A stretch of 41,363 bases of DNA from a virus: the IMG/VR virus record IMGVR_UViG_3300045988_121266, one strand, 5' to 3'. Of this stretch, positions 8,316 through 41,363 are shown in pieces; position 1 is the stretch's first letter, and each line of letters starts with the position of its first letter. The notes below the pieces were generated by a model. The model was not told the DNA's origin. It made no database searches and saw nothing but the letters and a program-made list of their open reading frames with translations. The position numbers and the translations under genes were made by a program.

Positions 8316-8327
8316 GAGATGACAATA

Positions 8328-8864
8328 GTGAAGAACAGAAAGTTATTTGGACTGCAGTTATTTGCAGAAGCAGTAGCAGGAAAAAAGATCGTATATCTGT
8401 ACCGTATCCTGAGTACAGAGAAAGATCATGATGCAACAGCACTTGCGTTTACAACAGAAAATGAACGTACAAAGTCGAAGGATGCTGATTCGACAGTGAC
8501 AAAAGATGGTACAGTACGTACACCGGGGGCAGCAGAAGGAGAAATCACAGCATCAAGCCTTTTGAAAAAAGGAGATGAGTTCATCGATGAGTTGGAAGCA
8601 GCACTCGACGATGATGAAAAGATGGAGATCTGGGAAGTAAACTTAGCAGAGCCGCAGGCGAGCTCGACTGATAAATTTAAGGCAAAATACTTCCAGGGAT
8701 ATCTTACGGAAATTGATAAGACATCCAATGCAGAGGATAATGTAGAGTTATCATTGACATTTGGACTGGAAGGAAAAGGCGTAGATGGCTATGCAACAGT
8801 TACTGCAGAACAGCAGGAAGTAGCAGCATATGTATTTGCAGACACTCAGAAGACAGGAGCTTAA
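8328..8864 (+). CDS. Major tail (tube) protein, phi13-like, with an L27-like N-terminal leader
   Basis: About 180 aa, followed by a strong terminator and the G/GT chaperone pair. The leader is (MTI)VKNRKLFGLQLF/AEAV. ATG 8319 directly abuts AGGAG with no spacer, so GTG 8328 (9-nt spacing) is preferred. Confidence 0.75.
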   Translation: MKNRKLFGLQLFAEAVAGKKIVYLYRILSTEKDHDATALAFTTENERTKSKDADSTVTKDGTVRTPGAAEGEITASSLLKKGDEFIDELEAALDDDEKMEIWEVNLAEPQASSTDKFKAKYFQGYLTEIDKTSNAEDNVELSLTFGLEGKGVDGYATVTAEQQEVAAYVFADTQKTGA

Positions 8865-8893
8865 GAGGGCGAGAAGAATCGTCCTCTTTTTTT
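8864..8893 (+). terminator. Rho-independent terminator after the major tail gene
   Basis: AGAGGGCGA-gaagaa-TCGTCCTCT forms a 9-bp stem with one G-U pair, followed by a T7 run. Confidence 0.8.
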
Positions 8894-8896
8894 GAT

Positions 8897-8910
8897 GTGC
8901 GACATCGCGC
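8897..8910. promoter_or_regulatory. Copy A of the recurrent palindrome GTGCGA-NN-TCGCAC (here GTGCGACATCGCGC)
   Basis: It lies 3 nt after the terminator T-run and immediately 5' of the RBS GGAAGGGAGA of the chaperone gene. Confidence 0.45.
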
Positions 8911-8929
8911 GGAAGGGAGATAAAACAAT

Positions 8930-9322
8930 ATGATGGAACTTACAATCAACGGAACAGTATATCAGTTTAAATTCGGGATGGGATTCTTAAGAGAAGCAAA
9001 TAAGCTTACCGTAGTTCCGGTTCAGGGAATGCCGGGAACAACAAAAGAGATAGGAGCAAGGTATCTGATCGCTAGTGTTGTGGTTGATCAGGAACCGAAT
9101 GCACTGGTAGATCTGTTAGATTTGGCGAATAAGGGAGAGAATCCAAGAGTAACAAAGGCAATGTTAGATTCTTACATTGATTCGGAAGAGGTAGACATCG
9201 ATGAGCTCATGGAGAAAACAAAAGATTTTTTATCGAAAACAAATGCTACCAAGAAAGCAGTGAAAGAGATCTTGAAAGAGTACGAGGAACAGATGGCGAA
9301 GAAGAAGGCTCAGGAGCTGTAG
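8930..9322 (+). CDS. Tail assembly chaperone (G-like)
   Basis: 130 aa, located between the major tail and tape-measure genes. Begins MMELTINGTVYQFKFGMGFLREANKL. Confidence 0.8.
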   Translation: MMELTINGTVYQFKFGMGFLREANKLTVVPVQGMPGTTKEIGARYLIASVVVDQEPNALVDLLDLANKGENPRVTKAMLDSYIDSEEVDIDELMEKTKDFLSKTNATKKAVKEILKEYEEQMAKKKAQEL

Positions 9323-18730: not shown

Positions 18731-18994
18731 ATGGATATTAGTACATTAGGAACAGTAGTAGGGATTGTAGCAATCTGTTATGTAATTGGACTTGGCTGCA
18801 AGGCATATGAGAAAATTCCAGACAAATGGATTCCGGTCATCATGGCCGTATGTGGCGGAGTTCTGGGCGTTGCCGGACTCTATACAATGCCGGACTTTCC
18901 AGCCGGTGATGTGATTAATGCAGTTGCGGTCGGAATGGCCAGCGGATTAGCGGCAACTGGAGTAAATCAGTTATATAAACAGCAGTGTAAGTAG
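18731..18994 (+). CDS. Holin
   Basis: 87 aa with 2-3 TM segments: VGIVAICYVIGLGC, IPVIMAVCGGVLGVAGL, AVAVGMASGLAATGVNQLYKQ. The RBS is CAGGAGGA. It lies directly upstream of the endolysin. Confidence 0.85.
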   Translation: MDISTLGTVVGIVAICYVIGLGCKAYEKIPDKWIPVIMAVCGGVLGVAGLYTMPDFPAGDVINAVAVGMASGLAATGVNQLYKQQCK

Positions 18995-19014
18995 AGGGCG
19001 ATTATTCGCCCTCT
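18993..19014 (+). promoter_or_regulatory. Stem-loop AGAGGGCGA-ttat-TCGCCCTCT (same stem sequence as the 8864 terminator, but no U-tract)
   Basis: Perfect 9-bp stem overlapping the holin stop codon. It is followed 15 nt later by palindrome copy B. Confidence 0.5.
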
Positions 19015-19029
19015 GACATATTATATAGT

Positions 19030-19043
19030 GTGCGACGTCGCAC
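19030..19043. promoter_or_regulatory. Copy B of the recurrent palindrome (GTGCGACGTCGCAC, perfect)
   Basis: It directly abuts AGAAAGGAG, the RBS of the endolysin gene, and is preceded by TTATATAGT. Confidence 0.5.
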
Positions 19044-19057
19044 AGAAAGGAGCAATT

Positions 19058-20410
19058 ATGGCACATTTATTTATTATAGCCGGACACGGAGCCGGTGACA
19101 GTGGAGCAGTTGGATACGGCTATACAGAGGCAGAGAGAGTCCGGGCACTTGCAAGACGAATCGTAGCATACGGAGGAAGTAATGTTACTCTTGGAGATAC
19201 AAACCGGAACTGGTATGCCGACAAAGGCATTAGCTCACTCAATATTCCAAAAAGCTATCAGATCTTGGAGCTTCACATGGACAGCGGAGTAGCTATGGCA
19301 AAAGGCGGTCACGTAATCATCAAGGAAGGATACTCTCCAGATCAGTATGATACAGCACTCGCCAACTTCATCGGTTCATTCTTCCCTGGCAGAGCAAATA
19401 AGGTAGTAGGCAGAGCGCATCTTGCCAACGTCAATCGTGCAGCTGCAAAAGGTTACAGCTATAGACTTCTGGAAAATGGATTCATTACAAACCAGGGAGA
19501 TCTCAACAAATTCAATTCCAAGATCGATGACTTGGCAAGAGGGATCCTCAAAGCATTCGGAATCACGTCTGCAGCACCAGTAGCATCAGTCAAGAAGACA
19601 GAACCTGTCGATGGAGAGATCAAGTCCGGTGGAGTATTCCAGAGCAAGACGGATAAGTTTGGTACAATCTCATATCAGGCTCACATGAGAAGTGCTGGCT
19701 GGGGAGCTTGGCAGTCTGACGGATTAATGGTCGGTTCAACAAACCAGAATCGCCGGATCGAAGCACTGCACATCCAGCCGGTCGGAGAAACAGATGTTGT
19801 TGTCCATATGAAAGGAATCGGAAACAAAGAATACAAGAACATTACCAAAGACACGCTGATCGGAACCACCGGACAGAACAGAAGACTGGAAGCAATCCGG
19901 ATCACCGGAAAGGAATCTTTCTACCTGTACAGAGTCCACCAGAAGAGTATTGGCTGGTCAGAATGGGCCAACAACGGAGAGTGGGCTGGTACGACCGGAA
20001 AAGGTCTGCAGATGGAAGCACTGGAGATTAAGAAATCCATGTTTTCAGTCGAGCCACACGTACAGAGCAAAGGCTGGTTGTCACCAAGAGCCGCAGAGAA
20101 TGTGATCGGTATCACCGGCCATGCATTACGTCTGGAAGCACTCAGAATCAACCCATACGGAAAGACGATCAAAGCGAAAGCACACATCCAGAGCAAAGGC
20201 TGGGTGGATTACGGCACGATCACCAAAGATACGATCATCGGTACAGTTGGAGAAAAGAAACGTATTGAGTGCTTATGTTTCGAAGGCGACTTCGAATACC
20301 GTGTTCATATCCAGAGTTCCGGATGGACAGACTGGACAAGAGCCGATGGAGTAGCTACTCTTGGAACTGTAGGACAGGAACTTAGAATCGAGGCTATTCA
20401 ATTTAGATGA
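19058..20410 (+). CDS. Endolysin: N-acetylmuramoyl-L-alanine amidase with six C-terminal ChW cell-wall-binding repeats
   Basis: The N-terminus HLFIIAGHGAGDSGAVGYGYTE...ELHMDSG...YRLLENGFITNQGDL is Amidase_3-like. From 19667 there are six repeats of the pattern Y-x-hHhQs-GW--W---G---GT-G---RhEAh-I (ChW). The ORF is open from GTG 19028, but ATG 19058 follows AAAGGAG. Confidence 0.9.
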   Translation: MAHLFIIAGHGAGDSGAVGYGYTEAERVRALARRIVAYGGSNVTLGDTNRNWYADKGISSLNIPKSYQILELHMDSGVAMAKGGHVIIKEGYSPDQYDTALANFIGSFFPGRANKVVGRAHLANVNRAAAKGYSYRLLENGFITNQGDLNKFNSKIDDLARGILKAFGITSAAPVASVKKTEPVDGEIKSGGVFQSKTDKFGTISYQAHMRSAGWGAWQSDGLMVGSTNQNRRIEALHIQPVGETDVVVHMKGIGNKEYKNITKDTLIGTTGQNRRLEAIRITGKESFYLYRVHQKSIGWSEWANNGEWAGTTGKGLQMEALEIKKSMFSVEPHVQSKGWLSPRAAENVIGITGHALRLEALRINPYGKTIKAKAHIQSKGWVDYGTITKDTIIGTVGEKKRIECLCFEGDFEYRVHIQSSGWTDWTRADGVATLGTVGQELRIEAIQFR

Positions 20411-20538: not shown

Positions 20539-22020
20539 TTACCTGTATAAGAAAAAGTAGATTTTAAGAGAATCGTTCTTGCGATCGTAGATAATCTTGT
20601 CGATGATCTGCTTCAGGGCTTCGTTCTTTTGAATGTATGTATAATTGTTGGAGATGAGAATATCATATACACTCCGGACCTTCTGAAGCATAGCATCCGC
20701 TGGATCCTGATCGGATTTACGAGCTGCCTTTTTCAATTCCTTTAATTGTTGTTCTAAGGATTCCCGTTCTTTCTGAATGATAGCTTTATTCGCTTTATAT
20801 TCTTCCAGTGTATCAATCCCTTCCCGGTAGGAGGCTTTTATTCGTTCCTCTTTGCCGGTTAAACTTTCCAAATGTTCTGTTATAGCCTTGCGCTCATCAA
20901 ACTGCTCTGTGGGTTGATATTCACGCAATTCATAGACAATATCTTTGGTATCCAATATTTCTTTGATACTGGCCAGAACTTCCTTCTCAAGGACCAGTGA
21001 GCTGATGCCGTTCGGCTTTTTACATTTACCTTTACTGTATCCGTAGCAGGAGAAGTAAGAATATTTTTCCCCATTGACTCGTTTCATAGTGGTTGAGGTT
21101 AGGGTGCGTCCGCAATCCGGGCATTTCAGCAGTCCGGAGAGCCAGTGCTTATAAGTGGAAGAGGGACGCTTGCCAACCGGCTTGTAGGTGGCTTTAAATC
21201 GTTTCTGCGCTGATTCAAAGAGTTCCTTTGATATGATAGCCGGCTGTTGTCCTTCTGTAACAATCCATTCGTCCTTATCTTTGATACGATTAGTGCTGTT
21301 CTCTGTCCGGTTCCACCGGATCATGCCACAATAGGAAGGATTCTGGATGATATATTCGACAGATCTTCGCTCAAATGGCTTTCCGTGCGAAGTCTTGAGC
21401 CCTAAAGAATTTAGGTATCTGGCGATATCAAAGAAGCTCATGCCTTCATTTGTGTATTTTTCGAATATAGTCCGAACAATCTTTGCTTCTTCCGGAACAA
21501 TCACCGGCGGCTTGCCATGCTCCACAACTTTGTAGCCGAGTGGTGGACGCGCCTGGTATGCTCCGCGGAGTGCATTTTCTTTCATGCCTCGATACACTTC
21601 GCCAGATAATCGGATAGAGTAATATTCATCCATCCACTCGATTATACGCTCGATCAGGCTGCCAAAAGGATTGTCGGAGAGTGGCTCGGACACACTCACG
21701 ACATCTACATTGTGCTGTTTTTTTAAAAGAGACTTGTATACGATGGATTCTTCCTGATTCCGGGCAAATCGTGAAAACTTCCATACCAGGATCAGATCGA
21801 CTGGACGGTCATCACCTTTGGCCAGTGCGATCATCTCCTGAAAGCCGGGACGCTTGTTGGCTTTTCTTCCGGAGATACCTAGGTCCGTGAAGATCTTCAG
21901 GATTACAATATTGTTCTTGGCTGCATAGTCCCGGAGGAGATGCTCCTGGGAGTCCGGGGAGATCTCTTCCTGATCATGAGTGGATACCCGGATGTAGCCG
22001 TATGCATATTTTACGCTCAT
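20539..22020 (-). CDS. Large serine recombinase (phage integrase)
   Basis: 493 aa. The N-terminal resolvase catalytic domain is YGYIRVSTHDQE...GISGRKANKRPGFQEM...LILVWKFSRFARN. It also has a recombinase domain, a zinc ribbon (CPDCGRTL...YFSCYGYSKGKCK) and a C-terminal coiled coil. Confidence 0.95.
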   Translation of the reverse strand: MSVKYAYGYIRVSTHDQEEISPDSQEHLLRDYAAKNNIVILKIFTDLGISGRKANKRPGFQEMIALAKGDDRPVDLILVWKFSRFARNQEESIVYKSLLKKQHNVDVVSVSEPLSDNPFGSLIERIIEWMDEYYSIRLSGEVYRGMKENALRGAYQARPPLGYKVVEHGKPPVIVPEEAKIVRTIFEKYTNEGMSFFDIARYLNSLGLKTSHGKPFERRSVEYIIQNPSYCGMIRWNRTENSTNRIKDKDEWIVTEGQQPAIISKELFESAQKRFKATYKPVGKRPSSTYKHWLSGLLKCPDCGRTLTSTTMKRVNGEKYSYFSCYGYSKGKCKKPNGISSLVLEKEVLASIKEILDTKDIVYELREYQPTEQFDERKAITEHLESLTGKEERIKASYREGIDTLEEYKANKAIIQKERESLEQQLKELKKAARKSDQDPADAMLQKVRSVYDILISNNYTYIQKNEALKQIIDKIIYDRKNDSLKIYFFLYR

Positions 22021-22044
22021 TGTATCACCTTCCTGTAATTATAT

Positions 22045-22058
22045 GTGCGACATCGCAC
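22045..22058. promoter_or_regulatory. Copy C of the recurrent palindrome (GTGCGACATCGCAC), upstream of int
   Basis: On the minus strand it reads tttttGTGCGATGTCGCACaTATAATtacAGGAAGGTGatacaATG. The palindrome abuts a perfect TATAAT -10 hexamer upstream of the integrase RBS. Confidence 0.5.
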
Positions 22059-22246
22059 AAAAATGGGTACAAAAATAACACCTATGCAGGTGCCAGGGAA
22101 ATGTGATATAATACTCTTGTTCACGGAATGTTATATCGTGCCTTGGCACTGTATAGTATTCAAAGATAGAGGCTCTGGTGCTGGTAACACCGGGGCTTCT
22201 GTTGTTTTATTGTGGATAACGTAAAAACATATATTTTTACGATTTA

Positions 22247-22822
22247 TTAATGATCTGCTAGAGACAGCACATTTGCCGTATATAAATTTATTCCAGAGAA
22301 TGTGGTAAAATCATTGTCATCAGAGATAATATTGGTATGGTTAGTAGAAACACAATTATCTAAGATAACATAATCAAAAGGATCGCATCTGTGTGCAGAG
22401 AAAGTATTTGTAAAATTTTTGAGTTTTGAATTTGTAAAATTAAAATCTAAAATCTTGCAAATAGCAGTAGCGTTATTTAAAGTTGTATGTAAGATGTTCT
22501 GTAATTTTTTTCTTTCCACAGAATCCTTTCGATAATCTTTAGGGGTATAATGGCAGTTAGGATTTGTAGCCAGAAAAATGGCAAACTCATTTTTCTCAAT
22601 TATATTTAATAATTCTGAAATATTGTAAACAGAGGTGCATAATGGGTTACCGTCAGATACTAATCTATCTACGAAATCATAATATGGTTTTGCCTGATAT
22701 TCCACACTTTTTTTTGTGAGACCATAACGTGGATAAACATACCAATAGAGAACGTTTGTATCCAAGAAATATTCTTTTGAATTATTAATGGAAGAGAAGG
22801 AATTAATATCTATAATATTCAT
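22247..22822 (-). CDS. PIN-domain nuclease-like protein (third gene of the GHKL/STAS/PIN cassette)
   Basis: 191 aa with acidic PIN-type motifs: YFLDTNVLYWY (N-terminal Asp), NISELLNIIEK (Glu) and NIISDDNDFTTF (C-terminal Asp cluster). Its ATG is 2 nt after the upstream stop, and its RBS GGTGGA lies inside the upstream gene. Confidence 0.65.
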   Translation of the reverse strand: MNIIDINSFSSINNSKEYFLDTNVLYWYVYPRYGLTKKSVEYQAKPYYDFVDRLVSDGNPLCTSVYNISELLNIIEKNEFAIFLATNPNCHYTPKDYRKDSVERKKLQNILHTTLNNATAICKILDFNFTNSKLKNFTNTFSAHRCDPFDYVILDNCVSTNHTNIISDDNDFTTFSGINLYTANVLSLADH

Positions 22823-22824
22823 AA

Positions 22825-23172
22825 TTATTCCACCTTTTTTGGAGCATTGTTAATGATTTTATCAATTTCGGAAGAAAACTCTGGATTTTCATATATTAGT
22901 TTAGCGTTATCAACCGAGGTCTTATATGTGCTTTTTCCAGTATCAGTTATATTTAATAATTCGATTTTTTCAAGCAAATCAAATCCATAAACAAGCCCTA
23001 ATGAAGCAAAGCTGTTGTTAAAAAAAGGTGAAGCAAAACGTTTGATACCATCAAAGTCAACAGATATTTCTTCCCCGCTTTTGAGTGCTTCTTCAATTAG
23101 GTGTTTTAATACAGCTCCCTTTGTTCTTGAAGCTGCTTCGTTTGTGAAAGACGATAATTTAATTGTGCTCAT
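22825..23172 (-). CDS. STAS-like (DUF4325-type) small protein
   Basis: 115 aa. GAVLKHLIEEALKSGEEISVDFDGIKRFASPFFNNSFASL matches the DUF4325 / anti-sigma-antagonist-like pattern (V-lDF-GV---sSF-de-F). The RBS is AGGAGG. Confidence 0.65.
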   Translation of the reverse strand: MSTIKLSSFTNEAASRTKGAVLKHLIEEALKSGEEISVDFDGIKRFASPFFNNSFASLGLVYGFDLLEKIELLNITDTGKSTYKTSVDNAKLIYENPEFSSEIDKIINNAPKKVE

Positions 23173-23190
23173 AAATTATTCCTCCTTATT

Positions 23191-24087
23191 TTAAATAGTG
23201 TATATATGATCATAATCAGCAATAATTGTGATACCGATAAACGTTCCCATAGAGGGAAAAGACAAATGTTCAAAATTAGATGTAGCATTGTATTGATAGT
23301 ATATATCGTTAGATAAAATATTTAAAGAGCCGTCATTTAGACGAATGAAGTCTTGCAGGTCAGATAAACCAAGACCGCGTGGAATACCACTAAGCAGTTG
23401 CTTAGTTGAATTTCCTCGCTTGAGGGCCCATTCAAGAGCAGATTTTGATGACATTGTATTATCAATTTTTTCTTTTATTAATGCGGGAATGCCGACACCC
23501 GTATCATAAACAGAAAAAGAAAGATATTTTTTCTGTGGCATCCAATGCCCACATGCATAAACTCCATGATTTGCACGAGAGTGATCGACTGAATTATTAA
23601 ATATTTCGTAAATATTCTTAAATAAAACTTCATGCCCTTGTTCTGTTAGTTGGATAGGTGCAAGCTCAAGAATATTGTCAATGTATTCGATAATACTCGA
23701 ATCATCTTTTAAATCGATGGATGCAAATGGTATAGCATTCCTGTTAGAATGAATATCTGGTTGCTTCATAATATGATCATACAAACCGGAATTATAAAAA
23801 TATTCACTTAGTTTACTGTTTTTAGAAGTTTGATATTTAATAGTTTTACCAAATGAAGCACCGATATACGCTAAAGCACCAAGGTACGATGTGAAAATAG
23901 CATGACTAAATCTACAATGTGTAAAGTCAAGGATAATAGTTGTTTCGTTAGAATCAATTAAATCGTTTTGTACTTTGGATAAAAATTTATACGTATCGGC
24001 GTTGTTGTTTAATGAAATCGGAAATATGATACGTTCCGCCATAAAATCATTCCTCGTTTCTTTGGCTATATACAATAGATTTTCCAC
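23191..24087 (-). CDS. GHKL (HATPase_c) ATPase / RsbW-SpoIIAB-like kinase-fold protein with an N-terminal STAS-like region
   Basis: The ORF is 298 aa. The probable start is ATG 24042, 7 nt after GAGGAA, giving 283 aa. Motifs are the N-box YEIFNNSVDHS (aa 160-170), the G1 box VYDTGVGIP (aa 193-201) and the G2 box GIPRGLGLSDL (aa 234-244). The N-terminal segment TTIILDFTHCRFSHAIFTSYLGAL is STAS-like. Confidence 0.7.
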   Translation of the reverse strand: MENLLYIAKETRNDFMAERIIFPISLNNNADTYKFLSKVQNDLIDSNETTIILDFTHCRFSHAIFTSYLGALAYIGASFGKTIKYQTSKNSKLSEYFYNSGLYDHIMKQPDIHSNRNAIPFASIDLKDDSSIIEYIDNILELAPIQLTEQGHEVLFKNIYEIFNNSVDHSRANHGVYACGHWMPQKKYLSFSVYDTGVGIPALIKEKIDNTMSSKSALEWALKRGNSTKQLLSGIPRGLGLSDLQDFIRLNDGSLNILSNDIYYQYNATSNFEHLSFPSMGTFIGITIIADYDHIYTI

Positions 24088-24096
24088 TATACAAAT

Positions 24097-24489
24097 TTAT
24101 TTCATCTGCACCTTCTGCATCAATGCTTCCTGGAGCACCTGCGAGAAGTTAAGTCCCATAGCAGTAGCGGACTCATTCAACCATTCAGGAATGGTGAGTG
24201 TCTTTTTAACAGCTTTCGAACTATGCTTCTTCAGATATGCAAATAAATCAAACTCAATGACAACAAGAAAACCATCATCAACTTTAAGTTCGCTGATATC
24301 TGTAGGATCAGGAATTACTTCCTTTTCTTTCTGTCTGCTTGTGACCGCAAGTCCTAATGCGTCAACGGCATTTTCGTATGCTTGCTGCATATCATCCCCG
24401 TCGGAAAAACATTCCGGGAAATCCGGGAAAGAGATCCAGAACCCGCCGTCTTCTTTATGAAAAATTGCCGGATAAAATAATCTGTTCAT
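24097..24489 (-). CDS. hicB: HicB-family antitoxin
   Basis: MNRLFYPAIFHKEDGGFWISFPDFPECFSDGDDMQQAYENAVDALGLAV is the typical HicB N-terminal fold sequence. ATG 24489 is 7 nt after GGAGGT, and the ORF is open from 24504. Confidence 0.85.
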   Translation of the reverse strand: MNRLFYPAIFHKEDGGFWISFPDFPECFSDGDDMQQAYENAVDALGLAVTSRQKEKEVIPDPTDISELKVDDGFLVVIEFDLFAYLKKHSSKAVKKTLTIPEWLNESATAMGLNFSQVLQEALMQKVQMK

Positions 24490-24528
24490 ACACGATACCT
24501 CCATAATATTTTATTTGTGCCGGCAGGA

Positions 24529-24717
24529 CTATTTAAGCCCCGCCTGTTTTAATATTGCCTGTTCCAAACCTTTTTTCAAGTCTTTGGAGTGATAAGGAAC
24601 AATTACTGTTCTACCAGTTTCCGGATTCATCAGTTTTACATGTGAGCCATTCTGACTAACTACGATGAAACCGTTTTTCTTGAGAAGTTTAATCATCTCT
24701 TTTGGTGTTAATGGCAT
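24529..24717 (-). CDS. hicA: HicA-family mRNA interferase toxin
   Basis: 62 aa. MPLTPKEMIKLLKKNGFIVVSQNGSHVKLMNPETGRTVIVPYHSKDLKKGLEQAILKQAGL is a typical HicA (YcfA-like) sequence. It lies upstream of hicB. Confidence 0.9.
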   Translation of the reverse strand: MPLTPKEMIKLLKKNGFIVVSQNGSHVKLMNPETGRTVIVPYHSKDLKKGLEQAILKQAGLK

Positions 24718-24756
24718 CTTTTGTATCTCCTTTCCTTATCATGATTACATTATAGC

Positions 24757-24801
24757 ACGTGTTAACACGTATGTCAAGCAAATATGTATAAATACGTATT
24801 T
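24757..24801. promoter_or_regulatory. Divergent control region with two perfect palindromes
   Basis: ACGTGTTAACACGT (24757-24770, 14 bp) and AAATACGTATTT (24790-24801, 12 bp) lie between hicA (-) and the XRE gene (+). Confidence 0.45.
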
Positions 24802-26362: not shown

Positions 26363-26689
26363 TTACTTAACTCGTTTATTCTTTACGAATTCAGCAAACT
26401 GACGGATTTCATCTAATTCAGATTCTGTGTATTCATCACCATCGAAGTGAGCTGCAAGGGTAGTTGGCTCATCTTGTGTGAAAACAATTATACCATCTAC
26501 CAGTTTCTCAGAATCTAATCCCAACTCACGTGTGATTTTTAAAACATTTGTTATGTTGGAATTGGCAATACCTCTTTTTAGAATACTATCTAAGGTAGTC
26601 CACGGCATATCTATTTTTTCGGAAAATTTTTTCATACTTCCGTATCTATCTATGATGAGTGCTTTCACATTAGATTCTAATTCATTCAT
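26363..26689 (-). CDS. immR: XRE-family phage repressor (CI/ImmR-like)
   Basis: 108 aa. The HTH is GSMKKFSEKIDMPWTTLDSILKRGIANSNITNVLKITRELGL. It is divergent from a Cro-like gene across an operator-rich region. Confidence 0.8.
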   Translation of the reverse strand: MNELESNVKALIIDRYGSMKKFSEKIDMPWTTLDSILKRGIANSNITNVLKITRELGLDSEKLVDGIIVFTQDEPTTLAAHFDGDEYTESELDEIRQFAEFVKNKRVK

Positions 26690-26738
26690 GTAAAGTTAAC
26701 TCCTTTCTTCAGTTGATGATTTGATAATAGCATTAAAA

Positions 26739-26860
26739 TCTCGAAAAATCAATATACTGTCACCGAAAATAAAATAAAAATCTCAAAAAATCGAGAAAAA
26801 CAGGTTGACATTCTCGAATAATTCGTATATACTTTAAAGTGCAATCAAGAAAAATCGAGA
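26739..26860. promoter_or_regulatory. Genetic switch region with four 16-bp operator-like repeats
   Basis: The four copies are TCTCGAAAAATCAATA (26739), TCTCAAAAAATCGAGA (26781), TCTCGAATAATTCGTA (26812) and TCAAGAAAAATCGAGA (26845). The consensus is the quasi-palindrome TCTCGA-N4-TCGAGA. Confidence 0.6.
26805..26833 (+). promoter_or_regulatory. Rightward (lytic) sigma-A-type promoter
   Basis: TTGACA (26805-26810), a 17-nt spacer, then TATACT (26828-26833). The spacer contains operator copy 3. Confidence 0.6.
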
Positions 26861-26874
26861 AAAGAGGTGAGAAA

Positions 26875-27096
26875 GTGTTTCCGAATTTAGAAGCCGAGAT
26901 GGCAAGAAATAAAGTGACGCAAGTAAAACTTGCTGAAATTCTGGGAATTACGCCAACAACGTTATCATTCAAGATGAACGGAAAAAGTACACTTTCATTA
27001 AAAGAATGTGTAGAAATCAAGCGAAAAGCATTTCCAGACAAAACATTAGATTACTTATTTGCAACAGATGAAACAGGTTCAGAGAAAGGAGAGTGA
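26875..27096 (+). CDS. Cro-like XRE-family HTH regulator
   Basis: The HTH is MARNKVTQVKLAEILGITPTTLSFKMNGKSTLSLKE. GTG 26875 follows AGAGGTGA. The ORF is open from 26839, and ATG 26899 is an alternative start. Confidence 0.75.
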   Translation: MFPNLEAEMARNKVTQVKLAEILGITPTTLSFKMNGKSTLSLKECVEIKRKAFPDKTLDYLFATDETGSEKGE

Positions 27097-37524: not shown

Positions 37525-38220
37525 ATGAGTTTACAAGAATGGGCAAAAAATGAAGTTGAAATCGCATGCAAAAGAGAAAATCCGGATAGAAAAGAAGGCG
37601 AATTTGATTATGGATGCGCTTGCTACGAAAGTGCATTAAAGGCATTTGAGAGCTTATGCGAAGATGGTCACAGTGGTATGAGTATCGGATTCACAAAACA
37701 GATTTTGAATAGACTGATCGATGGAAAGCCACTGACTCCGATAGAAGATACAGAGGAAATGTGGAAAAGATCATGGACAGATGAGAAAGGAAAACATTAT
37801 CAGTGTTCGAGAATGAGTAGCTTGTTTAAAACAGTAACTCCGAATGGAGAAATAAAGTATTCAGACATTAATAGGTGTTACTGTGTTAATCGCAATCATC
37901 CTAATTATGGATACCACAATGGATTTATCGGAAGTATATATGATGCGATGTATCCGATCACGATGCCATACGCACCGGCGGATAAACCGGACAAAATAGT
38001 TTGTGATGAGTTACTCACAGATCCTAAAAATGGAGATTATGATACAAAAGCAATAATTTACATAGAAAAACCGGATGGGAAGAAAGTGAAAATAAACAGA
38101 TATTTTAAAGAATCCGAAGAATCATTTAAGGAAATATCATGGTTAGAATATCAAATCCGCAGATACAAAGACTGGAGAAGGAGGAAGTGGTTAGGAAATG
38201 ACGAGGAAAGACATTCTTAA
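37525..38220 (+). CDS. Conserved phage hypothetical protein
   Basis: 231 aa with RBS ACGGAGAG. MSLQEWAKNEVEIACKRENPD...GCACYESALKAFESLCEDGHSGMSIGFTKQILNRLIDGKPLTPIED resembles a recurrent phage family of unknown function. Confidence 0.75.
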   Translation: MSLQEWAKNEVEIACKRENPDRKEGEFDYGCACYESALKAFESLCEDGHSGMSIGFTKQILNRLIDGKPLTPIEDTEEMWKRSWTDEKGKHYQCSRMSSLFKTVTPNGEIKYSDINRCYCVNRNHPNYGYHNGFIGSIYDAMYPITMPYAPADKPDKIVCDELLTDPKNGDYDTKAIIYIEKPDGKKVKINRYFKESEESFKEISWLEYQIRRYKDWRRRKWLGNDEERHS

Positions 38221-38610: not shown

Positions 38611-38630
38611 CCTCCGGCATCGGCCGGAGG
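38611..38630 (+). promoter_or_regulatory. GC-rich stem-loop directly 5' of an AGAAAGGAG RBS
   Basis: CCTCCGGC-atcg-GCCGGAGG forms a perfect 8-bp stem. It is immediately followed by AGAAAGGAGAGG and GTG 38645. Confidence 0.45.
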
Positions 38631-38833: not shown

Positions 38834-38842
38834 AAAACATGT

Positions 38843-38856
38843 GTGCGATATCGCAC
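38843..38856. promoter_or_regulatory. Copy D of the recurrent palindrome (GTGCGATATCGCAC, perfect)
   Basis: It directly abuts AGAAAGGAG, the RBS of the ORF starting at 38870. Confidence 0.5.
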
Positions 38857-38869
38857 AGAAAGGAGAACC

Positions 38870-39061
38870 ATGAATCATGAAGGTTATCAGGATCCGACAG
38901 CAGAAAGGGCGTTGCGCAGACACAACCAGATGCCCTACCATATGCGCAGGGCACTGACCGATCTGCAAGACATAGCAAGTTTGTTTGGATTTGATATCAT
39001 AACAATCAAGGACAGGCGGACGGGGAGGAAGTATAGAGTTGAAGAGAAGACCGATCAATAA
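38870..39061 (+). CDS. Small hypothetical protein
   Basis: 63 aa from ATG 38870 (MNHEGYQDPTAERALRRHNQMPYHMRRALTDLQDIASLFGFDIITIKDRRTGRKY). The track's GTG 38843 start lies inside the palindrome and is unlikely. Confidence 0.6.
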   Translation: MNHEGYQDPTAERALRRHNQMPYHMRRALTDLQDIASLFGFDIITIKDRRTGRKYRVEEKTDQ

Positions 39062-39446: not shown

Positions 39447-39533
39447 AACACACAAAACATCACCACTCACGGCACATAAAAGTGTGTTATTATGATATTG
39501 TCCGAAAATTGAAAAGGACATATTCACCCTGAA

Positions 39534-39563
39534 GGTGGCAGCAGATGATGCTGCCACCTTTTT
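39534..39563 (+). terminator. Strong rho-independent terminator upstream of terS
   Basis: GGTGGCAGCA-gatga-TGCTGCCACC forms a perfect 10-bp stem followed by TTTTTA. Confidence 0.85.
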
Positions 39564-39638
39564 ACGTGAAAATAAAAGATAAAACGAGATTGTTGAAAGA
39601 TAAAAATCAAAAACGAAATGAATGAGGGGTGGTGAGGC

Positions 39639-40409
39639 GTGGCAAGAGCACCTGATCAGAGGGCTGTTGAAGCAAAAGAATTATATGACAAAGGGATGAA
39701 ATTAATTGAGATTGCTAAGAAACTGGATGTTCCGGTTGGGACAGTCCGGAGCTGGAAGAACAGACAGTGCTGGGATAATGCAACGTTGCAAAAGAAAAAA
39801 CGCAACGTTGCGAAAAAAAGAGGCGGTCAGCCGGGGAACAAAAATGCCAAAGGACATGGCGGGACAGGACCGCTGGGAAACAAGAATGCAGTTAAGACAG
39901 GAGAGTTCGAAACTCTCTTTTTTGATACCCTGAATCCGGAAGAACTGCAGCTGGCCGAGACGATTGGACTCGACAAAGAGCAACTGCTTTTACAAGAAAT
40001 ACAGCTACTTACGGTTCGTGAATACCGCATGTTGCACCGAATAGAAGCATTGAAAAATGCTGAAACACAGCAAAACGAGGATGAGAAGTCGCCACCGGGG
40101 ATGACGGTAGTAAAATACACCGATGGACTGGAAAAAGGAGACTGTACAGAACTAAAAGAATATGCCGGAATACTTGGACAGATACAGCAGATAGAAGATG
40201 CACTCACGAGGGTACAGGCCAAGAAACAGAAAGCAATCGAAACTATCCATAAGTTTGGCTACGATGATGCCAAGTTAGAACTTGCTACGATGCAGTTAGA
40301 ACTCCAGATCATGAAACAGGATGGAGGATCGCATGAAACAGCGGACGACGGATTCATGGATGCCATGAACGCTACAGCTTCAGAAGTTTGGGGTGATCAG
40401 GATGTATGA
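39639..40409 (+). CDS. terS: Terminase small subunit
   Basis: 256 aa with a GTG start after GAGGGGTGGTGAGG. It has an N-terminal HTH (MKLIEIAKKLDVPVGTVRSWKNR), repeated GNKNA motifs (GGQPGNKNAKGHGG..GNKNAVKTG) and a coiled coil. It overlaps the terL start. Confidence 0.85.
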   Translation: MARAPDQRAVEAKELYDKGMKLIEIAKKLDVPVGTVRSWKNRQCWDNATLQKKKRNVAKKRGGQPGNKNAKGHGGTGPLGNKNAVKTGEFETLFFDTLNPEELQLAETIGLDKEQLLLQEIQLLTVREYRMLHRIEALKNAETQQNEDEKSPPGMTVVKYTDGLEKGDCTELKEYAGILGQIQQIEDALTRVQAKKQKAIETIHKFGYDDAKLELATMQLELQIMKQDGGSHETADDGFMDAMNATASEVWGDQDV

Positions 40410-41363
40410 AAAGATCACAAATCTGAAGAAAAAGATCCAAGATATGAAGAAAAGCCGTCTGCAGACAGTATATAACCAAATATTCAAGTTCAAACCGTTC
40501 TCAAAAAAGCAGAAACAGGTGCTGACATGGTGGTGTGCGACGTCGCCCGTAAAAGATTACGATGGGATTATAGCAGATGGAGCTATCCGATCGGGAAAGA
40601 CAGTATGTATGTCGCTATCCTACGTGATGTGGGCGATGGAAACGTTCAACGGACAGAATTTCGCCATGTGCGGGAAAACCATCGGATCATTTCGAAGGAA
40701 TGTACTGTTTTGGCTAAAACTCATGCTAAAGGCAAGAGGCTACGGTGTGGTAGACCACAGAGCCGACAACCTGATAGTGATCACAAGAGGAAAAACGACC
40801 AATAACTTCTACATATTCGGTGGAAGGGACGAAAGCTCCCAGGACCTGATACAGGGAATCACACTGGCAGGAGTCTTCTTTGATGAAGTGGCGCTTATGC
40901 CGGAAAGTTTTGTGAATCAGGCTACTGGCCGATGTTCGGTAGATGGATCGAAGTTCTGGTTTAACTGCAACCCTTCCGGACCTTACCATTGGTTTAAGGT
41001 CAATTGGATAGACAGAGCCGTTGGATACATTGGAAAAGAACGGGCAGCAGAGTTAAGGGCGAAAGATGAACCGGTCAAGAATATCCTATACGCACATTTC
41101 GTAATGGACGATAACCTGAGCCTCAGTGAAAAGATCAAAGAAAGATACCGGAATACATACAGAGGAGTATTCTACAAGCGTTACATTCTCGGCCTGTGGG
41201 CGATGGCAGAAGGTGTTATCTATGACATGTTCGATAATGAAAAGCATGTGGAAGATCCGAATGCATTCCAAACAAAGCTGATAAATAGCAATAGATACGT
41301 TAGTTGCGATTACGGAACACAGAATGCCACAGTTTTTCTGCTGTGGAACAAAGGAACAGACGG
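40402..41363 (+). CDS. terL: Terminase large subunit, N-terminal ATPase part (runs off the 3' end and continues at 1..497)
   Basis: ATG 40402 overlaps the terS stop. Walker A is DGAIRSGKT and Walker B is LAGVFFDE. Other segments are KFWFNCNPSGPYHWF and CDYGTQNATVFLLW. There is no stop before the end of the window. Confidence 0.9.
   Translation, partial: MYEKITNLKKKIQDMKKSRLQTVYNQIFKFKPFSKKQKQVLTWWCATSPVKDYDGIIADGAIRSGKTVCMSLSYVMWAMETFNGQNFAMCGKTIGSFRRNVLFWLKLMLKARGYGVVDHRADNLIVITRGKTTNNFYIFGGRDESSQDLIQGITLAGVFFDEVALMPESFVNQATGRCSVDGSKFWFNCNPSGPYHWFKVNWIDRAVGYIGKERAAELRAKDEPVKNILYAHFVMDDNLSLSEKIKERYRNTYRGVFYKRYILGLWAMAEGVIYDMFDNEKHVEDPNAFQTKLINSNRYVSCDYGTQNATVFLLWNKGTD
41309..41363 (+). repeat. 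55-bp terminal direct repeat (identical to 1..55); circular-assembly overlap
   Basis: ATTACGGAACACAGAATGCCACAGTTTTTCTGCTGTGGAACAAAGGAACAGACGG is present at both ends and lies inside the terL reading frame. Confidence 0.95.

Follow-up and report, generated by a model that had tools for sequence, protein, structure and literature searches.

A 16-bp palindrome at gene entrances in gut Lachnospiraceae phages, a candidate site of a sequence-specific DNA-binding protein

A stretch of 41,363 nucleotides from a gut Lachnospiraceae phage, hereafter the window, carries a short palindrome directly upstream of several Shine-Dalgarno (SD) sequences, which raises the question of what recognizes this element and with what effect. 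A preliminary description of the sequence had listed five copies of GTGCGA-NN-TCGCAC and considered them unlikely to have arisen by chance. An exhaustive pattern search of the window with up to two mismatches returned exactly those five, compared to 0.71 on average in 100 dinucleotide-preserving shuffles, of which none gave more than 3 and hence none reached five. The T reported before each copy was present in 5/5 cases, while the base following the 14-mer was A for the three perfect copies (B, C, and D), G for copy A, and C for copy E. The consensus unit was a 16-mer palindrome, TGTGCGAYRTCGCACA, i.e., T-GTGCGA-YR-TCGCAC-A, with the following copies in the window:

8896..8911 (14-mer 8897-8910), no strand assigned: copy A, TGTGCGACATCGCGCG; 14-mer GTGCGACATCGCGC with one mismatch
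19029..19044 (14-mer 19030-19043, perfect), no strand assigned: copy B, TGTGCGACGTCGCACA; before the endolysin gene
22044..22059 (14-mer 22045-22058, perfect), no strand assigned: copy C, TGTGCGACATCGCACA; before int
38842..38857 (14-mer 38843-38856, perfect), no strand assigned: copy D, TGTGCGATATCGCACA
40534..40549 (14-mer 40535-40548), plus strand: copy E, TGTGCGACGTCGCCCG; 14-mer GTGCGACGTCGCCC with one mismatch; within terL

Four of the five copies were intergenic, each 0–11 nt 5' of an SD sequence. Copy A came after the terminator of the major tail protein gene and before the tail chaperone SD, and differed from the 16-mer at two right-hand positions (GCGC instead of GCAC, and G in place of the flanking A). 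Copy D preceded a 63-aa ORF, itself ahead of the genes for a 135-aa protein and terS. Copy E coded for W-C-A-T-S-P in terL, and relatives retained the same single mismatch; since simple arithmetic gives approximately 0.09 such near-matches expected by chance in 41 kb, this copy was probably a coding coincidence outside the system. The surroundings of the intergenic copies contained the following features:

8863..8895, plus strand: intrinsic terminator of the major tail protein gene; 10-bp stem, then a T run
8911..8919, plus strand: tail chaperone SD GGAAGGGAG, adjoining copy A; ATG at 8930
18993..19014, plus strand: hairpin after the holin gene, AGAGGGCGA-TTAT-TCGCCCTCT; no T run in the window
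19044..19052, plus strand: endolysin SD AGAAAGGAG, overlapping copy B by one base; ATG at 19058
22038..22043, minus strand: perfect TATAAT, immediately after copy C on the int strand
22076..22095, minus strand: terminator-like hairpin with a T run, behind the PIN-domain gene; on the int strand it precedes copy C
38857..38865, plus strand: SD AGAAAGGAG of the 63-aa ORF, overlapping copy D by one base; ATG at 38870

On the minus strand, copy C was bordered by a terminator on one side and, on the other, successively by TATAAT (22043-22038), GGAAGGTG, and the ATG of int (22020). The perfect TATAAT was thus where it had been described, adjoining the palindrome, and inspection of the sequence revealed no recognizable -35 element at 16–18 bp from it. 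A TATAAT, TATACT, or TATATACT box was retained in other integrase contexts. The promoter scan called no promoter at any copy of the palindrome.

Stem-loops with the same arms (AGAGGGCGA/TCGyCCTCT) had been noticed ahead of copies A and B, and both were indeed present, at 8864-8887 and 18993-19014; the former is followed by seven T and was called as an intrinsic terminator. The combination had been taken for a duplicated regulatory cassette. Instead, it consisted of an ordinary terminator-type hairpin and an independent palindrome, since in relatives each of the two is also kept in the absence of the other. One stem pair of the hairpin at 18993-19014 was G-U in 21 relatives, G-C in 6, and A-U in 2, a covariation that indicates a putative sense-strand RNA or terminator hairpin. 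The other GC hairpin mentioned in the preliminary description, which adjoins another SD at 38611-38630, was likewise found and was kept in relatives. A search against Rfam gave no match at the gathering threshold anywhere in the window.

Lack of conservation in relatives had been named beforehand as grounds for refutation, and conservation of position was strong. The 16-mer recurred before lysis, integrase, tail, and late-regulator genes in hundreds of related prophage contigs from at least five named genera, and the same sequence occupied the same positions in 21 genomes of Lachnospiraceae and in >100 viral contigs from the human gut. It preceded about 40 unrelated genes, including several families of endolysins, tail chaperones, and integrases as well as anti-defence-like genes, and in one lineage it preceded a tRNA; in five loci (L002, L026, L031, L098, and L114) the palindrome ended 4 nt before a tRNA-Arg gene. 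The site is real, strongly non-random, and conserved base for base over many unrelated genes and several host genera, with variation limited to the central YR step. Its edges were sharp: beyond the T on the upstream side and the SD on the downstream side, different contexts had unrelated sequences.

Among 31 distinct endolysin upstream regions, the arms were invariant or nearly so and the flanks were variable. The layout of copy C was repeated before at least four unrelated integrase N-termini, and about half the loci with the 63-aa protein as anchor had copy D, which was degenerate or absent in the others. At the position of copy A, most tail chaperone relatives at ≥79% identity carried a perfect TGTGCGACATCGCACA; those at 53–59% identity kept the terminator, directly followed by the RBS, and had no palindrome. 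The only DNA relative among cultured phages, Dorea phage DO134P1, shares the structural module with the source phage and contained zero copies. Because the terminator of the distant relatives runs directly into the RBS and DO134P1 has no copy, the palindrome is an add-on. No genome with the element was found among the cultured phages in INPHARED. A search of the accessible full-text library with the four 14-mers yielded no match, and a keyword search yielded general leads only.

The substitution pattern allowed recognition of the sequence to be distinguished from mere base pairing. Perfect arms were found in 127 of 137 distinct SD-linked contexts, and the ten variants were single transitions, five per arm, of which five were compatible with G-U pairing and five broke the pair. 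In the endolysin-anchored loci, which were collected blind to the motif, four of the six stem pairs were invariant and zero compensatory changes were seen, while in the same alignment the upstream hairpin covaried and the spacer varied in both length and sequence. The compensatory or wobble signature of a conserved RNA hairpin was thus lacking, with no pair changed on both sides. The center was always YR (CG, CA, TG, or TA) in all phage-type contexts, and non-YR centers occurred only in high-GC or coding matches of chance appearance. Such a step at the dyad axis is a common feature of operators that dimers bend. Together, the invariant arms, the YR center, the lack of covariation, and the 5/5 split argue for recognition by a sequence-specific protein rather than for a mere RNA hairpin, and judging from this pattern the protein most likely recognizes the palindrome as duplex DNA. 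Of the suggestion that the motif is an operator for a dimeric regulator, the part concerning sequence-specific protein recognition was therefore supported by arms that are invariant over ~137 contexts, while neither the RinA/ArpU-like protein proposed to bind it nor a repressor of the CI/Cro type was, as discussed below.

The reading that we favor, to which we give somewhat less than an even chance, is that TGTGCGA-YR-TCGCACA is recognized by a sequence-specific DNA-binding protein, probably a dimer, which gates entry to selected cistrons; this protein may be phage- or host-encoded. We infer protein binding itself, duplex DNA as its target, and repression or a roadblock as its effect. The sites would mark the entrances of selected transcription or translation units, usually right after the terminator-type hairpin of the preceding gene. 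Units gated in this way would be the endolysin/lysis cassette, the genes that follow the one for the major tail protein, int/xis, the beginning of the late-regulator/packaging block, accessory genes, and, in one lineage, the tRNA. Once bound, the protein would stop RNA polymerase, at int by occluding the spacer ahead of the -10 box and elsewhere as a roadblock to read-through, and the gated units would stay shut until it leaves. At int, the palindrome would hold the spacer position of a promoter, given the conserved TATAAT-like box directly after it. The site would also be independent of translation, to judge from the copies before tRNA-Arg and the -10-like box after the int copy. For a gene set comprising lysis, int/xis, late regulators, tail, and accessory genes, being all off together would fit better than being all on together.

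Several observations are less easily reconciled with an operator. All convincing copies were co-directional with the downstream gene and most lay within 0–1 nt of its SD, neither of which is required of a DNA operator and both of which would suit an RNA element. Read in gene orientation, the center was CA in 58 and TG in 7 distinct contexts (18 vs. 6 among contexts differing in both flanks), a strand asymmetry that one would not expect of a symmetric DNA site, although common ancestry could account for it. The sequence does form a stable RNA hairpin that leaves the SD free, and four sites per genome are few for a silencing system. At copy A a promoter would not fit, which leaves a roadblock as the sole mode of action there, and the searches described below yielded no binding protein.

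A first alternative, which we consider unlikely but worth retaining, is that the palindrome acts in read-through transcripts, as a hairpin (6-bp stem, 4-nt loop) immediately ahead of the SD, used by a sequence-specific RNA-binding protein or endoribonuclease. With similarly low probability, such a protein would control translation, cleave in the A/U-rich stretch just upstream, or protect a new 5' end, and in this way uncouple the downstream cistron from a highly expressed upstream gene. RNA folding predicted the hairpin, at -7 to -8.4 kcal/mol and with the SD unpaired, in all four contexts. Besides the co-directionality and the distance of 0–1 nt to the SD in most contexts, an action on RNA would agree with the A/T-rich positions -6 to -2 and with the usual location after the 3' hairpin of the preceding gene, which gives a succession of hairpin, A/U linker, and hairpin. 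The CA over TG bias is compatible with a strand-specific constraint, and the different GC hairpin at 38611-38630 offers a second, conserved example of a hairpin adjoining an SD. However, covariation was absent, G-U-compatible and disruptive substitutions were equally frequent (5 vs. 5), and the stem was conserved while the middle of the loop varied. Most known cases of protein-hairpin recognition show the opposite. Moreover, some copies precede a tRNA, where an SD or a 5' stabilizer has no role, transcripts starting from the -10-like box of int, between hairpin and SD, would not contain the hairpin, and the palindrome has no Rfam match. A 5' mRNA hairpin controlling stability or translation had also been among the initial suggestions: the hairpin does fold, but plain-hairpin and purely translational roles were weakened by the substitutions and the tRNA copies.

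It seems improbable that the palindrome is the core of a phage-specific promoter, to which a phage factor such as the 135-aa protein would bring the host RNA polymerase. Equally improbable is the corollary that transcription would start at the right edge of the palindrome and give mRNAs beginning at the SD, or a few nt before the tRNA. In many contexts the palindrome was the sole conserved sequence between terminator and gene start, including, for the tRNA-HNH-terminase lineage, the place where the packaging block begins, and the lack of space for a sigma-70-type promoter at copy A would also be accounted for. A perfect palindrome is, however, atypical of a promoter, a -10-like sequence at the right distance followed only copy C, and 45 contexts aligned on the palindrome showed no fixed -10-like signal. 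Neither a phage RNA polymerase nor a recognizable sigma factor was found among the window proteins, the family of the 135-aa protein occurs in motif-free phages, and it is difficult to see why int would be activated jointly with lysis and tail genes.

We likewise give little credence to the idea that the palindrome and SD have no regulatory role of their own and form a module-boundary linker for homologous exchange between co-infecting phages, or the remnant of a small mobile element: homology breakpoints do fall at the element edges, different genes can follow one and the same upstream sequence, just as one gene can follow unrelated ones, and assemblies often break at or near the element (e.g., L016 and L359), but a pure supplier of homology should drift with a gradual decay of identity, whereas the 14 positions are near-invariant across several host genera next to freely varying bases, and any conserved functional site would be expected to show mosaic joints.

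Other identities were rejected. The sense-strand 3' side of the palindrome is a purine-rich SD and not the U tract of an intrinsic terminator, a T run being found only at copy D, in antisense. A sigma-70-type promoter was called at no copy, and TATAAT accompanied only copy C, without a -35. The attP core of a serine recombinase was dismissed on the basis of several copies per genome and of an int-proximal copy that is intact, with both flanks conserved, in viral contigs; the central dinucleotide of this copy was often the symmetric CG. The 6-bp stem is far too short for an RNase III site. An antisense promoter, as suggested at copy B by a -10-like box after the palindrome on the other strand, was set aside since copies A and D have no such box and A/T-rich flanks yield such hexamers by chance. 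To our knowledge, the palindrome fits neither a CRISPR-repeat mimic nor the Spo0A, cre, Rex/CRP, or LexA boxes.

Among known systems, the palindrome loosely resembles the stoperators of cluster A mycobacteriophages. These are sites of the L5 gp71 repressor that are thought to halt elongating RNA polymerase and thereby silence prophage genes; they are 13-bp, asymmetric, identical to the operator of the immunity repressor, and number ~24–30 per genome. In common with L5-type stoperators, a short conserved site is repeated in short intergenic gaps of operons, near gene starts and co-oriented with transcription. Unlike them, the palindrome is perfect, 16 bp long, present in about four copies per genome, common to phages of several host genera, and absent from the immunity region, where the repeats differ. 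Roadblock operators of the LacI family, such as the CcpA cre sites, are palindromes of 14–16 bp, usually with CG as the central pyrimidine-purine step, and block elongation downstream of promoters or inside operons. The palindrome shares their size class and the central pyrimidine-purine step; its half-site GTGCGA, however, matches neither cre nor any operator known to us.

At the RNA level, the E. coli thrS operator, the coat-protein hairpins of RNA phages, and the target of phage Mu Com are small hairpins by an RBS through which a protein controls initiation, with conserved loop or bulge bases and covarying stems. In contrast to these translational operators, the palindrome has an invariant stem and a variable loop center, and what follows it is in some cases a tRNA gene or a -10 box. 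It is also reminiscent of T7 RNase III sites and of hairpin-guided RNase Y cleavage, in which conserved intergenic hairpins are repeated along a polycistronic phage transcript by the next RBS, but intercistronic processing sites are not expected to hold an invariant sequence.

As to the binding protein, the label RinA/ArpU-like for the 135-aa protein encoded at 39039 was not supported, as this protein had no match in Pfam, NCBIfam, or the PDB. Foldseek returned no match at E ≤ 0.001 for its AlphaFold2 model (pLDDT 81), and it belongs to a PHROG family of no assigned function whose homologues are all named "hypothetical". The 135-aa protein and the motif occurred together in the close relatives of the window. 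A 51%-identical homologue in an Aminipila prophage had no palindrome within 10 kb on either side (partial genome), and a 31%-identical homologue in Faecalibacterium phage FP_oengus was accompanied by no recurrent palindrome in the first 50 kb of the 58-kb genome. Both the 63-aa and the 135-aa protein were undetected in many motif-bearing contigs, or present without the motif. The 63-aa protein was modeled by AlphaFold2 with low confidence (pLDDT 67) as two helices and a beta-hairpin, and an exhaustive profile search of its family gave only ~96 clusters of small unnamed proteins.

A phage repressor of the CI/Cro type was also discarded: the immunity region (26690-26870) uses a different repeat, with three copies of AATCTCGAAAAATCGAGAAAA and no GTGCGA palindrome or half-site cluster. 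A Cys-rich protein has a homologue in the motif-free DO134P1, an RHH-like ORF adjoining the tRNA-linked copies is absent from the window, and no LacI-type protein is encoded in the window. Searches of ~50 window proteins against Pfam, PHROGs, and NCBIfam, and PDB sequence searches, gave no candidate. The 321 motif-bearing loci were also examined, by tblastn for presence/absence and by clustering their 14,928 ORFs all against all; this gave no binder either, the result being dominated by the genes with which the loci had been fetched.

More speculatively, and with a probability that we consider low, a single trans-acting factor, possibly host-encoded, could serve as a common switch in many unrelated prophages of human-gut Lachnospiraceae, either as a roadblock on DNA or by binding nascent RNA. 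Such a cross-prophage regulon, to which we assign the same low probability, would place lysis, integration/excision, late-gene entry, and accessory genes under one "master gate".

Lachnospiraceae (Dorea and relatives) are abundant human-gut bacteria, and we know of hardly any experimental study of their prophages. The 16-bp site provides a concrete and testable handle on the silencing and switching of these prophages. It also marks the mosaic joints where phages swap endolysin, tail chaperone, and integrase modules, and could help to place gene starts and transcription units more accurately when gut viromes are annotated. Should the binder prove to be host-encoded, prophage induction across a bacterial family would be tied to host physiology, and if the "master gate" holds true, prophage behavior across the whole family could be coupled to a single signal.

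A pattern search with GTGCGANNTCGCAC, allowing up to two mismatches, recovered exactly five matches in the window (at 8897, 19030, 22045, 38843, and 40535), against a mean of 0.71 and a maximum of 3 in shuffled sequence. These were the five copies claimed in the preliminary description, with no others, and the T it had placed before every copy was borne out when the flanks were read (5/5). As an A additionally follows all three perfect copies, the consensus unit is a 16-bp palindrome, TGTGCGA-YR-TCGCACA. Flank reading placed the copies as follows:

8897-8910, 19030-19043, and 38843-38856 (copies A, B, and D): adjoining, or sharing one base with, the extended Shine-Dalgarno sequences (SDs) GGAAGGGAG and AGAAAGGAG
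22045-22058 (copy C): on the integrase strand, a perfect TATAAT comes next, ahead of the SD and ATG of int
40535-40548 (copy E): within terL, coding for W-C-A-T-S-P

The mismatch in copy E is retained in relatives, and this copy was treated as a coding coincidence. Family searches identified the window as a temperate siphovirus, for which Dorea phage DO134P1 is the sole cultured phage related at the DNA level, and assigned the following genes, together with a replication module:

8319-8864: major tail protein
8930-9322: tail chaperone
18731-18994: holin
19058-20410: amidase endolysin
20539-22020, minus strand: large serine integrase
22247-24717, minus strand: cargo genes, namely HicA/HicB (HicAB) and a defence-like cluster of HATPase-like, DUF4325 (STAS-like), and PIN-domain genes
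37525-38220: cargo gene, the anti-Thoeris gene Tad3
39639-40409: terS

The terL gene seems to span the window ends (40402-41363 and 1-497), but its two parts are not in frame with each other; the window probably represents a complete phage genome that is permuted, or terminally redundant. At the hicA promoter (24718-24765, minus strand), a perfect palindrome, ACGTGTTAACACGT, lies between TTGACA and TATAAT and is probably the HicB operator. Between int and the PIN gene (22100-22210, plus strand), an extended -10 (TGtGATATAAT, approximately 22103-22113) lies about 50 nt ahead of a strong terminator with a 16-bp stem (22165-22203); this pair could yield a small RNA of approximately 90 nt, for which no Rfam or tRNA match was found. 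Between the gene of the 135-aa protein and terS (39450-39565), an A/T-rich promoter-like stretch precedes a terminator with a T run (39534-39555), an order that recalls lambda pR'-tR' and suggests a possible requirement for antitermination at the late genes.

An exact scan of IMG/VR with the 16-mer returned at least 118 stretches, most of them human-gut viral contigs of one common layout, in which a GC hairpin, frequently ending in a T run, precedes 4-25 A/T-rich bases, the palindrome, the SD, and ATG in turn. A 24-mer comprising palindrome and SD, scanned against one genome per species, matched 21 genomes, every match in a prophage-like context; the named genomes were Lachnospiraceae (Dorea, Mordavella, Sporofaciens, Bariatricus, and Acetatifactor) or unclassified Clostridiales. 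None of the cultured phage genomes searched, DO134P1 included, carried the palindrome, and its sequence had no match in the searchable literature. Loci were also collected by protein similarity alone and hence blind to the motif. Among these, the palindrome was kept in almost all endolysin relatives of at least 84% identity and absent from about five endolysin relatives, while some of approximately 70% identity had it without the upstream hairpin. It was likewise retained in tail-chaperone relatives of at least 79% identity; at 53-59% identity, the palindrome was missing and the major-tail terminator led directly into the ribosome-binding site, so that the palindrome is an insertion-like add-on placed between a pre-existing terminator and the ribosome-binding site. 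Over all loci it lay upstream of at least 40 different N-termini, including those of several apparently unrelated endolysin types (amidase-like and GH25-like) and DUF2829-like accessory genes, both judged by eye, as well as several tail-chaperone families, at least four integrases, an excisionase-like HTH protein, and the 63-aa ORF that follows copy D. Two exact palindromes inside coding sequences flanking a PcfJ-like gene (L315, 3334 and 5870) recur as a pair approximately 2535 bp apart in four other related loci (L008, L272, L284, and L321); this pair is not conserved in the window.

Two additional scans, each with one arm and the SD fixed and transitions permitted in the other arm, were pooled with the earlier loci to give 137 distinct contexts, in 127 of which both arms were perfect. 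The ten variants were single transitions, five per arm, of which five were G-U-compatible and five pair-breaking; this split matches the neutral expectation and gave no sign that an intact hairpin is selected for. When 31 distinct endolysin upstream regions were aligned, invariant pairs made up four of the six in the palindrome and none showed compensatory changes, whereas one pair of the upstream hairpin was G-U in 21 regions, G-C in 6, and A-U in 2; the spacer varied in length and sequence. The behaviour of the upstream hairpin is thus that of an RNA or terminator structure on the sense strand, and that of the palindrome is of a site recognised by its sequence. The central dinucleotide alone was free, being always pyrimidine-purine (CG, CA, TG, or TA) in phage-type contexts. 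A dimeric DNA-binding protein would yield invariant half-sites flanking a flexible central step, and an invariant stem with a free centre is the opposite of most protein-hairpin recognition.

Two contexts argue against an SD-dependent role and are better explained by an effect on transcription entering the unit downstream. In one lineage (L002 8878-8971, L026, L031, L098, and L114), hairpin and palindrome are followed 4 nt later by a tRNA-Arg(CCU) gene heading a tRNA-HNH-terminase block. At integrases, a conserved TATAAT, TATACT, or TATATACT box lies between palindrome and SD, so that the palindrome sits where the spacer of a promoter would be expected. Our preferred but tentative reading takes the palindrome as an operator for a putative dimeric DNA-binding protein that would gate entry into selected units: at int, the bound protein would occlude the promoter, and elsewhere it would form a roadblock, the frequent upstream terminator reinforcing the gating.

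An RNA-level hairpin element with a sequence-specific partner, acting in processing, 5' protection, or translational control, appears rather unlikely. It is still a serious rival because every convincing copy is co-directional with the next gene, most contact the SD, positions -6 to -2 are A/T-rich, the predicted fold is a hairpin (-7 to -8.4 kcal/mol) with the SD unpaired, and the centre is CA more often than TG in gene orientation (58 vs. 7 distinct contexts; 18 vs. 6 among those differing in both flanks). Another GC hairpin (38611-38630), whose extended form is conserved in relatives, also adjoins a different SD. This hairpin, CCCTCCGGC-atcg-GCCGGAGG, precedes a 62-aa Cys-rich gene and has a longer nested form upstream of that gene in relatives (L273-L322); its anti-SD-like 5' arm (CCUCC) suggests a translational control element. 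That the palindrome is itself the core of a phage-specific promoter is improbable. Equally doubtful is a recombination linker without regulatory role; the palindrome does fall at mosaic joints, but these are expected at any conserved site.

The search for a protein binding the putative operator did not yield one. An ImmA-type peptidase, an adjoining 108-aa ORF without annotation, and a Cro-like HTH gene in the opposing orientation are read as the lysogeny switch; the palindrome is absent from this immunity region, which has its own triple repeat, AATCTCGAAAAATCGAGAAAA, instead. The three 21-nt repeats (AATCTCGAAAAATCGAGAAAA and variants, 26737-26863) surround a TTGACA...TATACT promoter between a repressor-like ORF (26363-26689, minus strand) and, divergent from it, the Cro-like HTH gene (26839-27096), and are probably the operators of the switch. 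The 135-aa protein, proposed earlier to be RinA/ArpU-like, found no such support in Pfam, NCBIfam, PDB, or Foldseek, and all its homologues are named "hypothetical". Around the homologue from an Aminipila prophage (51% identity), the palindrome was absent within 10 kb on either side, and the first 50 kb of Faecalibacterium phage FP_oengus (31%-identical homologue) held no recurrent palindrome. The 63-aa protein is absent from motif-free DO134P1; however, the protein-anchored scan also failed to detect it in many motif-bearing contigs that are near-complete. DO134P1 does encode a homologue of the Cys-rich 62-aa protein. ORF clustering over 321 motif-bearing loci, which are genome fragments, gave no binder candidate. 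The binding factor may be host-encoded, which would fit the sharing of one identical site, in several genera, by phages whose modules are unrelated.

Among known systems, the stoperators of L5-like mycobacteriophages come closest; there, the site is asymmetric and is the operator of the immunity repressor. The palindrome of the window differs in both respects, being symmetric and not the immunity repressor's operator; as these are defining features, it would be said to work like stoperators rather than to be a member of them. The element belongs to a general kind already known, repeated operator-like sites at cistron entrances; the perfect palindrome, its SD-abutting placement, and its sharing by several phage lineages and host genera are unusual. 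The palindrome is a real and strongly conserved cis-element, apparently undescribed, of prophages in gut Lachnospiraceae, and its interest would grow if a single common factor, from host or phage, proved to use it in controlling lysis and integration.
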